From Escherichia coli (GTDB lineage Bacteria > Pseudomonadota > Gammaproteobacteria > Enterobacterales > Enterobacteriaceae): a stretch of 64,000 nt of DNA. The DNA lies in the NCBI RefSeq assembly GCF_024700885.2, contig NZ_CP117016.1. One strand, 5' to 3'. The notes below the pieces were generated by a model. It was not told where the DNA came from and made no database searches. It saw nothing but the letters and a program-made list of their open reading frames with translations. The translations under genes were made by a program, and so were the position numbers. Shown in pieces: positions 19,632 to 20,543 of the stretch (position 1 is its first letter; every line of letters begins with the position of its first letter).

Positions 19632-20543
19632 ATATTATCACTTACTGGCGGCTCATACTGAGCTGGTTAATGCTGTGCACACACAAACAAGCAATTCCAT
19701 TTGTAATGTGCCTCCCTGGCAGTTTCATCCGGAACCCGGACGAAAGTAAAAATGCATATGAGTTGCACTAAAAAAGCGACTCACATTGTTCCGTTATAAT
19801 GCCTGAAGTAGATCACAGAATATATCTTCAGGAATCGCATATCTATTAAGTTACTCACTCTTTTGTATTTATGACATGCGCGTGTTTGTATAAATGTAAA
19901 TGTGAGTCCTTGTTCCACTCTCGTGCAGCATCGCTGGTCATACGCGAACACGTACAAACAGCAATGGTGAGGCGGCATCAAGAGCAGGGATCCGTCATTT
20001 ATGCGAGCATTTTACCCCAAAAACCTTTTATTTATAAGGGTCATTGCGAATTATCTGATGCAAAGTTATGTTATGTTAGGCAAAGTAATCTTCTATTATT
20101 AATAAGCACAACAAAACCTTTTTGAATATTAAATAATTAGCATCATCCTCATTCATTAATCCCGCTTAACAATAGTTTCACACCTTGCACCCATTACGAC
20201 ACCTCGGAAATCATCACGCTGTTAAACTCTCCGTAATGCGGAAATATCATCATCACGATTCATTAGTGAATTCTTAAACGAGGCATTTTCAAACAATTAT
20301 CTTACAGATAAAAAAACCACACTCACAATTAAGAATCAGAACAATTCACTACATAACATTAATTACTAAGCATATACACCTCATTATTTTGCCATTATTA
20401 AGTTATTAACAGCACAATCGAGTCTTCCCCTCTGGCAAAATCTTATTCTGCAGACCTTCAAAACGCCGTCCTGGGGGAGTACATTGTTCTAAGCTGACTT
20501 CCACGGCAGGGAGTGGCGATAACAGCAAAAAAGGTCAAGATTC

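Follow-up and report, generated by a model that had tools for sequence, protein, structure and literature searches.

The lrhA–alaA intergenic region of Escherichia coli: a probable shared control region of two divergent genes

The 912-bp spacer between the divergent genes lrhA and alaA of the Escherichia coli chromosome (positions 19632–20543 of a 64,000-nucleotide (nt) stretch of DNA, here called the window) is very probably a shared control region of the two genes, acting at both the DNA and the RNA levels. At the DNA level, two weak sigma-70-type promoters, PlrhA and PalaA, would flank an AT-rich, G-poor stretch without a mapped transcript, which may serve as a platform for Lrp (activating lrhA), H-NS (silencing lrhA), OmpR, and LrhA itself. 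Two boxes (A and B) would stand upstream of PlrhA, each at a set distance from it, and the alaA -35 hexamer would have an Lrp-like site directly beside it. At the RNA level, the last ~120 nt of the 371-nt lrhA leader would gather the post-transcriptional inputs. The small RNA (sRNA) UhpU would pair beside the ribosome-binding site and block translation; ArcZ and RprA would repress lrhA as well, with McaS forming chimeras without effect; CsrA, bound to GGA motifs at -117 to -31, would lower LrhA synthesis; Hfq would destabilize the transcript, and processing or 3′ trimming would leave Hfq-bound leader fragments of ~80 and ~320 nt. The alaA mRNA would carry a 52-nt leader with a conserved stem-loop at its start. 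The region is real, already known and characterized, and is no source of a new RNA gene: the two starts, the UhpU pairing, the repression by ArcZ and RprA, the CsrA peak, the Hfq binding, the RNA 3′ ends, and the involvement of Lrp, OmpR, and H-NS all come from published experiments. The additions of the present analysis are modest, and comprise a spacer whose length and boxes are fixed while its sequence drifts, a covarying alaA stem-loop, and a private 7-bp absence.

The spacer is bounded by the open reading frames (ORFs) of lrhA (18693–19631, minus strand) and alaA (20544–21761, plus strand). The coordinates of the gap given in a preliminary description of this DNA are exact, as judged from the ORFs and the RefSeq annotations of strains MLI114 and K-12, which contain no feature between the two genes. 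The gap is also, as stated there, the largest gene-free stretch of the window, followed among annotated intergenic gaps by nuoA–lrhA (629 bp) and elaD–yfbL (390 bp). It is 100% identical to the spacer of MLI114; of 5,426 complete genomes, 5,425 have a single copy of it, in most cases with 95–99% identity. Compared with the lrhA–alaA region of K-12 (b2289/b2290), the window shows 96.4% identity, with 33 differences in 919 aligned columns and no insertions or deletions up to 20133; the locus is the same, and every element mapped in K-12 is present. The K-12 start sites, leader, UhpU site, CsrA peak, and 3′ ends were transferred to the window by direct coordinate mapping. The window strain has C, and K-12 has G, as base +2 of the lrhA mRNA (site 20003). 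The spacer contains 38.5% G+C, compared with ~52% for the window, and its inter-promoter part is 66% AT. Between 20100 and 20420, the composition is 38% A, 23% C, 9% G, and 30% T; C exceeds G (binomial p = 1e-5), and A+C lies within the top 1.3% of equal-size windows. The tract is thus AT-rich and A/C-rich (G-poor), as had been noted, whereas its designation as low-complexity was rejected, since Tandem Repeats Finder detected no tandem repeat in the spacer; the repeats present are few, short, and two-copy.

Transcript maps define the anatomy of the region. The genome-wide K-12 table of transcription start sites (Kim 2012) contains exactly two starts here, lrhA and yfbQ (= alaA), and the upstream sequences in the table match the window, placing the lrhA start at an A at 20002 (minus strand) and the alaA start at an A at 20492 (plus strand), 489 bp apart. 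Both promoters therefore lie within the region, as predicted earlier, and the accompanying prediction of long 5′ untranslated regions (UTRs) held for lrhA (371 nt) and failed for alaA (52 nt). RNA 3′ ends mapped by Term-seq occur only on the minus strand, inside the lrhA leader; none was recorded at K-12 2407000–2407699 on either strand, and none on the plus strand in the region. The A/C-rich tract at 20100–20420, located between the two start sites, is consequently part of neither mapped mRNA.

The arrangement is conserved. A scan of one genome per species yielded 80 loci with an LrhA relative, all in Enterobacteriaceae, and the divergent pair was kept in 79 of them, with a gap of 764–1140 bp in 78. 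The 79th locus is cut short, although its alaA promoter motifs still lie ~850–870 bp upstream of lrhA, and the arrangement was lost in Cedecea colo. The corresponding gaps of Erwinia, Proteus, and Xenorhabdus measure 812–1014 bp, and the gap is not a chance feature. Alignment of 78 related loci revealed four conservation islands, namely the proximal lrhA leader (19632–19702), PlrhA with ~25 bp upstream (20009–20061), the boxes (20122–20183), and the Lrp-like site, PalaA, and the alaA leader (20435–20543), outside which identity was at background (21–44%). The restriction of conservation to these elements provides independent support for the anatomy of the region. With genes pointing outward, a mapped start for each inside the gap, and both promoters on conservation islands, the region has the properties of a divergent-promoter control region.

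The features of the lrhA side are as follows.

19632–20002, minus strand: lrhA 5′ UTR, 371 nt (K-12 start-site table, Kim 2012).
19643–19664, minus strand: UhpU pairing site, -33 to -12 from the AUG (computed duplex with UhpU nt 225–246, and published mutants).
19661–19747, minus strand: CsrA peak with the GGA motifs CCGGAUGAA, CAGGGAGG, and AAUGGAAUU (Potts 2017).
19668–19683, minus strand: candidate RprA/McaS site, UGUGUGCACAGCA against UGCUGUGUGUA, shared by both sRNAs (complementarity).
19681, minus strand: RNA 3′ end, 322 nt from the start and 50 nt before the AUG (Term-seq, K-12 2406691).
19709–19725 (core 19722–19711), minus strand: candidate ArcZ site, CUGCCAGGGAGG against the ArcZ seed UUUCCCUGGUG, at -94 to -78 (best ArcZ duplex).
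19917–19923, minus strand: RNA 3′ ends, 80–86 nt from the start, at the 3′ foot of the first leader stem-loop (Term-seq, K-12 2406927 and 2406933).
20009–20037, minus strand: putative lrhA promoter, -35 TTATAA (20037–20032), 17-bp spacer, -10 TAAAAT (20014–20009), read at its distance from the mapped start.
20041–20090, no strand assigned: region upstream of PlrhA, with conserved CATTGCGAATTATCTGATGC and then a 20-bp tandem direct repeat (20051–20070 and 20071–20090).

The 371-nt lrhA 5′ UTR was described as “unusually long” by Melamed 2023, and the reporter primer SM079 in the oligonucleotide table of that study begins with ATAAATGACGG, which corresponds to window position 20002 downward. Only six sites of the UTR are polymorphic among eight E. 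coli strains, and the UTR folds better than shuffled sequences (z = -2.4). Positions 1, 2, 3, 5, and 6 of the lrhA -10 element and a TTTATAA box are conserved in at least 80–90% of the 78 loci; the hexamers of both promoters, exactly as assigned here, remain putative readings of the DNA. Upstream of PlrhA, conservation reaches 60–80% at 20041–20061, and the two copies of the 20-bp direct repeat (D2, 20051–20090) are 75% identical; 20041–20090 is a candidate transcription-factor site. One clinical E. coli strain carries a 5-bp GTTAT insertion after 20064, within the GTTATGTTATG run of this repeat. In the proximal leader, five motifs are conserved across 21 genera: (A/G)GGAUGCAC, AAAUGGAAUUGC, CACAGCA, a small hairpin, and AAGUGA directly ahead of the AUG. 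An RNAalifold analysis of the proximal leader in the same genera returned no consensus structure, the sequence motifs alone being conserved.

The proximal leader is a target of several sRNAs. RNA interaction by ligation and sequencing (RIL-seq) captured chimeras of the lrhA leader with UhpU, ArcZ, RprA, and McaS (Melamed 2023). In the same study, UhpU, ArcZ, and RprA repressed an lrhA-lacZ fusion and McaS had no effect, and compensatory mutations, by which repression of the fusion was lost and then restored, proved the pairing between UhpU and lrhA. The mutants given in the oligonucleotide table, lrhA-M1 (GCCGC[C>G]AGT) and UhpU-M1 (AACU[G>C]GUG), identify the validated UhpU-pairing nucleotide as the C at 19647, 16 nt before the AUG, and this published pair falls inside the independently computed duplex (19664–19643). 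Prediction with full-length sRNAs was rejected because it gave long, loop-filled, unrealistic duplexes, while a sliding 22-nt duplex scan picked out both the validated UhpU site and the site of the ArcZ seed. For ArcZ and RprA, repression was demonstrated and pairing with lrhA is predicted: the best ArcZ duplex on the leader, with its core at 19722–19711, uses the conserved seed of processed ArcZ, and the CACAGCA core of the candidate RprA/McaS site (19683–19668) is conserved across genera. Its in vivo association with Hfq, together with the published proof of UhpU pairing, places the lrhA leader among Hfq-dependent sRNA targets.

CsrA also acts on this part of the leader. Crosslinking and immunoprecipitation sequencing (CLIP-seq) of CsrA gave a peak (peak_226, K-12 2406671–2406757) at -117 to -31 of lrhA, and ribosome footprints on lrhA doubled (log2 +1.0) in a csrA mutant (Potts 2017). 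The check for CsrA (GGA) sites proposed in the preliminary description was accordingly positive for lrhA, with peak_226 mapping to 19661–19747. As is typical of a CsrA-bound leader, this segment contains three GGA motifs, two of which are conserved across genera; GGA is not enriched over the whole lrhA UTR (7 observed, ~5 expected).

The small RNA species of the region are fragments of the lrhA leader, known as the Hfq-bound “ig-lrhA-alaA”. This RNA was co-immunoprecipitated with Hfq, and fragments of 150 and 350 nt were seen on Northern blots, the full transcript accumulating only in the absence of Hfq (Bilusic 2014). The 3′ end at 19681, which fits the ~350-nt Hfq-bound band, has a non-significant Rho score (1.06) and a borderline intrinsic-terminator score (3.7). 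At 19917/19923, the Term-seq reads are at least as numerous as those at the 3′ end of the lrhA mRNA (78,199 at K-12 2406933, compared with 46,870), and these ends follow a hairpin predicted to span leader nt 17–85. It may be asked whether the ~80-nt (to 19923/19917) and ~320-nt (to 19681) fragments act in trans, as 5′-UTR-derived sRNAs or as sponges for ArcZ, RprA, McaS, UhpU, Hfq, or CsrA. Such a role is rather unlikely, although it has several points in its favor. The fragments are abundant in Term-seq, and their defined 3′ ends and Hfq binding are those of stable RNAs; the 150- and 350-nt bands were enriched with Hfq while the full mRNA was unseen in the wild type; McaS has the most chimeras without regulating the fusion, and the authors of the RIL-seq study proposed that McaS might be inhibited; and the ~320-nt species would contain the CsrA, ArcZ, and possibly RprA/McaS sites. 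However, conservation within the region is lowest in the leader's first 100 nt (21–37% identity to the window), and other genera do not share the 5′ hairpin (mean z = -0.46; 18% of loci score below -1.5). No terminator accompanies the 3′ ends, which resemble processing or trimming stops, and in total RNA the fragments can barely be detected.

Between the two promoters, the shared control region contains the following features.

20122–20183, no strand assigned: two conserved AT-rich boxes, ~125–180 bp upstream of the lrhA start (conservation islands).
20122–20140, no strand assigned: box A, GAATATTAAA..TAATTAG.
20152–20183, no strand assigned: box B, CATTAAT..CTTAACAATAG..TTTCACA.
20184–20434, no strand assigned: AT-rich, G-poor filler, the core of the A/C-rich tract (identity to other genera 22–44%).
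20436–20450, plus strand: site CAAAATCTTATTCTG, similar to the Lrp consensus (two mismatches to YAGHAWATTWTDCTR), immediately upstream of the alaA -35, conserved across genera.

Mean identity in boxes A and B is 54–65% over the 78 loci, with many columns at 80% or above. By eye, the boxes show resemblances to an RcsAB box, to CRP and IHF sites, and to the LysR-type T-N11-A motif, all of which were too weak to be retained. The distances between elements were determined in 79 sequences and are matched by motif-anchored distances, which are independent of the alignment. The PlrhA -35 lies 88±2 bp from box A, box A lies 47–48 bp from box B in 71 of the 79, and box B lies 283–298 bp from the alaA -35 in most loci. 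The -35 to -35 distance has an interquartile range (IQR) of 426–435 bp; the lrhA leader measures 333–576 nt (IQR 381–431, standard deviation 38). The excess of C over G on the plus strand keeps its sign in 75–91% of loci across -100 to -450 from alaA.

Published work links several proteins to this region. Chromatin immunoprecipitation (ChIP) and RNA sequencing identified lrhA as a direct Lrp-activated target, OmpR ChIP enrichment was reported in the DNA between lrhA and alaA, and lrhA is repressed by H-NS. The supplement of Potts 2017 mentions LrhA autoregulation where it describes the gene. Peaks of RNA polymerase in systematic evolution of ligands by exponential enrichment (SELEX) were found in the “920 bp-long” lrhA–alaA spacer, which was described as a multi-factor spacer (Shimada 2014). 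In the window, the spacer holds seven Lrp-consensus-like matches, compared with 2.5 expected (p ~0.02). LrhA is said to regulate its own gene, and Lrp reportedly controls alaA. Boxes A and B may bind proteins, and the length of the spacer may itself have a role.

A more far-reaching proposal, tentative and on the whole unlikely, is that the 489-bp inter-start stretch is a length-calibrated architectural element, in which the boxes, 88 and ~136 bp upstream of the lrhA -35, and ~290 bp of G-poor filler, drifting in sequence and fixed in length, would allow one complex of Lrp and H-NS, perhaps with LrhA or OmpR, to bridge both promoters, the stem-loop or palindrome at +6 to +23 of alaA, with its ACGGCA center, contacting a further factor. 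Were it correct, control of motility, RpoS, and CRISPR through lrhA would be coupled to alanine synthesis through alaA and would respond to leucine and alanine, and the private 7-bp deletion between the boxes would be a natural phasing mutant. At the other extreme, the spacer could be mostly functionless, neutral filler, with the promoters and the proximal leader alone mattering. This is very unlikely, even though identity to other genera is at background in 20184–20434, ~9% of the sites there are polymorphic among the eight E. coli strains (in two haplotypes), close to our estimate for unconstrained DNA, and insertion sequence (IS) elements and transposons are tolerated in the spacer. Neutral filler would not be expected to show a -35 to -35 distance that is far tighter than the length of the lrhA UTR, boxes conserved at fixed distances, and a conserved composition bias, nor would transposon insertions in the Serratia spacer be expected to cause overexpression of pigU, the regulator gene in the position of lrhA. 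Over 20100–20470, the two E. coli haplotypes differ at ~7% of sites, and the window strain carries the minority haplotype, unlike K-12. Among the eight strains, there are ~33 variable sites in 20100–20470 and none in 20482–20531.

The window strain lacks 7 bp (TAATAAT) after 20133, between boxes A and B. The sequence is present at 20133/20134 in K-12, E. albertii, Salmonella, and Citrobacter, and the allele without it occurs in 1 of 5,416 E. coli genomes (MLI114). Box A to box B is consequently 41 bp in the window strain, compared with 47–48 bp elsewhere. The absence could be either a private mutation or an assembly error. Insertions in the region alter lrhA or pigU expression; in a Keio strain, IS5 is inserted at -137 of lrhA, at about window position 19768, inside the leader. 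In E. coli SCPM-O-B-12142, an IS1 element lies 166 bp upstream of alaA, with its junction near 20377, and elaD through the nuo operon and lrhA are missing. In total, 42 of the 5,425 genomes have no uninterrupted copy of the region, and matching places exceed records by 28.

On the alaA side, three features were mapped.

20457–20492, plus strand: putative alaA promoter, -35 TTCAAA (20457–20462), 17-bp spacer, -10 TACATT (20480–20485), start at 20492.
20492–20543, plus strand: alaA 5′ leader, 52 nt, with a Shine-Dalgarno (SD)-like AAAGGU at 20530–20535.
20497–20514, plus strand: stem-loop or DNA palindrome ACUUCC-ACGGCA-GGGAGU, +6 to +23 of the alaA mRNA (78-locus alignment).

The start of yfbQ in the K-12 table is supported by 231 reads, with a 52-nt UTR. 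The -35 and -10 hexamers of alaA, as well as the first 25 nt of its mRNA, are near-invariant in the 78 loci, and the leader measures 47–53 nt in the 79 sequences. Of 5,425 E. coli genomes, 5,419 match a 47-nt core of promoter and leader at 99% identity or more; the core is single-copy, with no second copy in E. coli genomes, so that it gives no sign of a regulon-wide motif. The inner six pairs of the stem form in 91–100% of the 78 loci, and the stem extends to 9 bp (20494–20517) in some genera. The pairs vary in a compensatory manner, as expected of a structured leader hairpin. One pair is found as AU (42 loci), GC (12), or GU (8), and a second as UG (36) or UA (25); the outer pairs show further double changes in some genera. 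In all, double changes affect four of nine pairs, giving 28 such cells compared with 11.7 in shuffles. Covariation was 0.187, against at most 0.108 in controls slid along the alignment, and none of 500 shuffles reached 0.187; 81% of stem cells were paired, compared with 42–57% in the slid controls. The ACGGCA loop is nearly invariant. The folding energy is ordinary (z = 0.14). The element was not found in Rfam or in the literature consulted on the locus. The pattern fits equally well a hairpin at the 5′ end of the mRNA and a palindromic operator immediately downstream of the start site, and a function in alaA expression may be supposed for either. alaA is no CsrA CLIP target, yet its RNA is increased in a csrA mutant (Potts 2017).

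It was also considered that the C-rich, G-poor tract belongs to a long alternative alaA leader, serving as a Rho utilization (rut) site, a C/A-rich translational enhancer, or a GcvB-type target. The excess of C over G on the alaA-sense strand is rut-like and conserved in sign, and the SELEX study (Shimada 2014) proposed an alaA promoter, TTAAGA-17-TATAAC, at 20329–20357. This possibility is nevertheless highly improbable, as the mapped start lies at 20492 (231 reads) with no upstream start in the table, the proposed -10 is unconserved and polymorphic (CATAAC in the window strain, site 20352), no 3′ ends occur on the plus strand, and a literature search gave no link between alaA and GcvB.

An independent, unannotated sRNA gene or antisense transcript in the spacer has only a slight chance of existing. 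The preliminary description had regarded the region as a candidate location for uncharacterized sRNAs or regulatory elements. Regulatory elements are indeed dense, but they are published rather than uncharacterized, and no separate start, terminator, or Rfam match speaks for an sRNA; the A/C tract, no likely home of new transcripts, lies between the mapped starts and contains no mapped start or 3′ end. The spacer is long, AT-rich, and unannotated, its strand asymmetry is strong with a conserved sign, and a consensus promoter scan returned two matches, at 20079–20050 (minus strand) and 20389–20418 (plus strand). These matches, however, are at the level of shuffled sequences (2 compared with 2.8), off the mapped starts, and at unconserved positions; the scan missed the lrhA and alaA promoters, which are too weak for it. 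No terminator-like site was found in 19632–20543, an Rfam 15 scan of 18000–22000 at E up to 1 gave no match inside the spacer, the start-site table and Term-seq are empty between the mRNA starts, and no other portion of the region is less conserved or more polymorphic than the tract. Neither a promoter or primary 5′ end of its own nor a defined 3′ end, the marks of an independent sRNA gene, was thus found in the spacer; the maps show essentially only the two mRNA leaders, which is the outcome that the preliminary description had named as refuting independent transcripts. The sole Rfam match in the scanned interval, at 18582–18653 in the nuoA–lrhA gap, is to AaHKsRNA41 (Aggregatibacter sRNA 41; 19.6 bits against a gathering threshold of 97, E = 0.22), and is almost certainly due to chance.

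A small protein or leader peptide encoded in the region is the least probable of all: ORFs of 12–84 codons exist mechanically, among them a 14-codon GUG ORF (20513–20557) that overlaps the alaA start, but of the 27 ORFs with 12 or more codons, not one has stayed intact in most of the 78 loci, which bears out the earlier remark that no convincing ORF is present, the closest being a 26-codon antisense ORF at 20458–20538 (39 of 78, compared with 27 of 78 for the GUG ORF); every one of the best-kept ORFs overlaps DNA of the alaA promoter and leader, whose near-invariance has other causes, insertions or deletions of 1–5 nt occur in 20521–20543 among genera, and no conserved pattern of an SD sequence plus a start codon was seen.

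Four points weigh against a shared control region of the kind described. The asymmetry of C >> G between the strands of the spacer is not explained by a pure protein platform. In the work consulted, the evidence for Lrp, OmpR, H-NS, and LrhA is at the level of the gene or region rather than of the nucleotide. The duplex energies of the ArcZ and RprA/McaS sites are no better than those of shuffled controls; as 22-nt duplexes do not exceed shuffled UTRs, energy alone is no evidence, and both sites are offered as candidates. The transcript maps come from K-12, another strain, under few growth conditions, so that a condition-specific start in the spacer is possible.

LrhA stands high in the enterobacterial lifestyle network, where it represses flhDC and motility, lowers RpoS, and controls fimbriae and CRISPR-Cas, as well as virulence and secondary metabolism in relatives. 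The region upstream of lrhA is thus a point of convergence for many signals. Published promoters, a leader targeted by sRNAs and CsrA, and a protein-binding spacer explain the largest “empty” stretch of the window, and no new gene call is needed. The current understanding of the locus stands, and the fixed spacer length, the fixed boxes, and the covarying alaA hairpin provide testable handles on the wiring of the promoters.

Some further observations concern neighboring DNA. In the nuoA–lrhA gap, Term-seq recorded “orphan” 3′ ends on the minus strand at 18072–18076, ~10 nt ahead of the start codon of nuoA, and at 18287, further up the 629-bp gap (K-12 2405082/2405086/2405297), with up to 475,924 reads, and the CsrA CLIP peak_225 (K-12 2405645–2405748) covers both the stop codon and the 3′ UTR of lrhA. 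These data suggest leader-derived RNAs or attenuation before the nuo operon. In Budvicia aquatica, a Branch_AA_trans gene (branched-chain amino-acid transporter) lies between the lrhA homologue and alaA, and in Sodalis glossinidius the 2.5 kb that separate nuoA from alaA contain no called lrhA gene. In several database entries for AlaA, 418–500 residues long, the start codon was apparently called too far upstream, through the leader.

The closest known relatives of the region are the pigU–alaA gap of Serratia and the corresponding gaps of hexA (Photorhabdus, Xenorhabdus, Pectobacterium) and pecT (Dickeya), in which an orthologous LysR-type regulator is divergent from alaA across ~0.8–1.0 kb. 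As in E. coli, the regulator is controlled through this DNA: insertions in the pigU–alaA gap lead to its overexpression, and ArcZ represses hexA and pecT through their leaders, at -50 to -42 and -84 to -58, respectively. The leaders of Erwinia, Proteus, and Xenorhabdus contain the ArcZ-seed-complementary AACACCAGG at about -50 to -40, and this motif of the hexA/pecT group differs from CUGCCAGGGAGG at -91 to -80 in E. coli. Erwinia and Xenorhabdus keep the alaA promoter, and Erwinia also a stem-loop, UUCC-ACGGCU-GGAA, whereas Proteus keeps neither; outside Enterobacteriaceae, neither boxes A and B nor the motifs of PlrhA can be recognized.

At a more general level, lrhA resembles flhDC, csgD, and rpoS, which likewise have long 5′ UTRs that integrate Hfq-dependent sRNAs (ArcZ, RprA, McaS, and others) and CsrA, and whose spacers, like that of lrhA–alaA, are long and AT-rich and bind many transcription factors. 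Shimada 2014 accordingly grouped lrhA–alaA with csgD–csgB and nanC–fimB. The loci and sequences differ, however, and the sRNAs that regulate lrhA repress it, whereas rpoS is activated; Rho-dependent attenuation was not detected in the lrhA leader (Rho score 1.06). In mRNAs of the ompA type, stem-loops at the 5′ terminus are stabilizing. The alaA hairpin, if formed, would resemble these in lying a few nt from the 5′ end of a short leader and in being kept through compensatory changes. It differs from them in that its ACGGCA loop and two closing C-G pairs are essentially invariant, which pure protection would not need, and in that the element is also a DNA palindrome and hence a possible operator.

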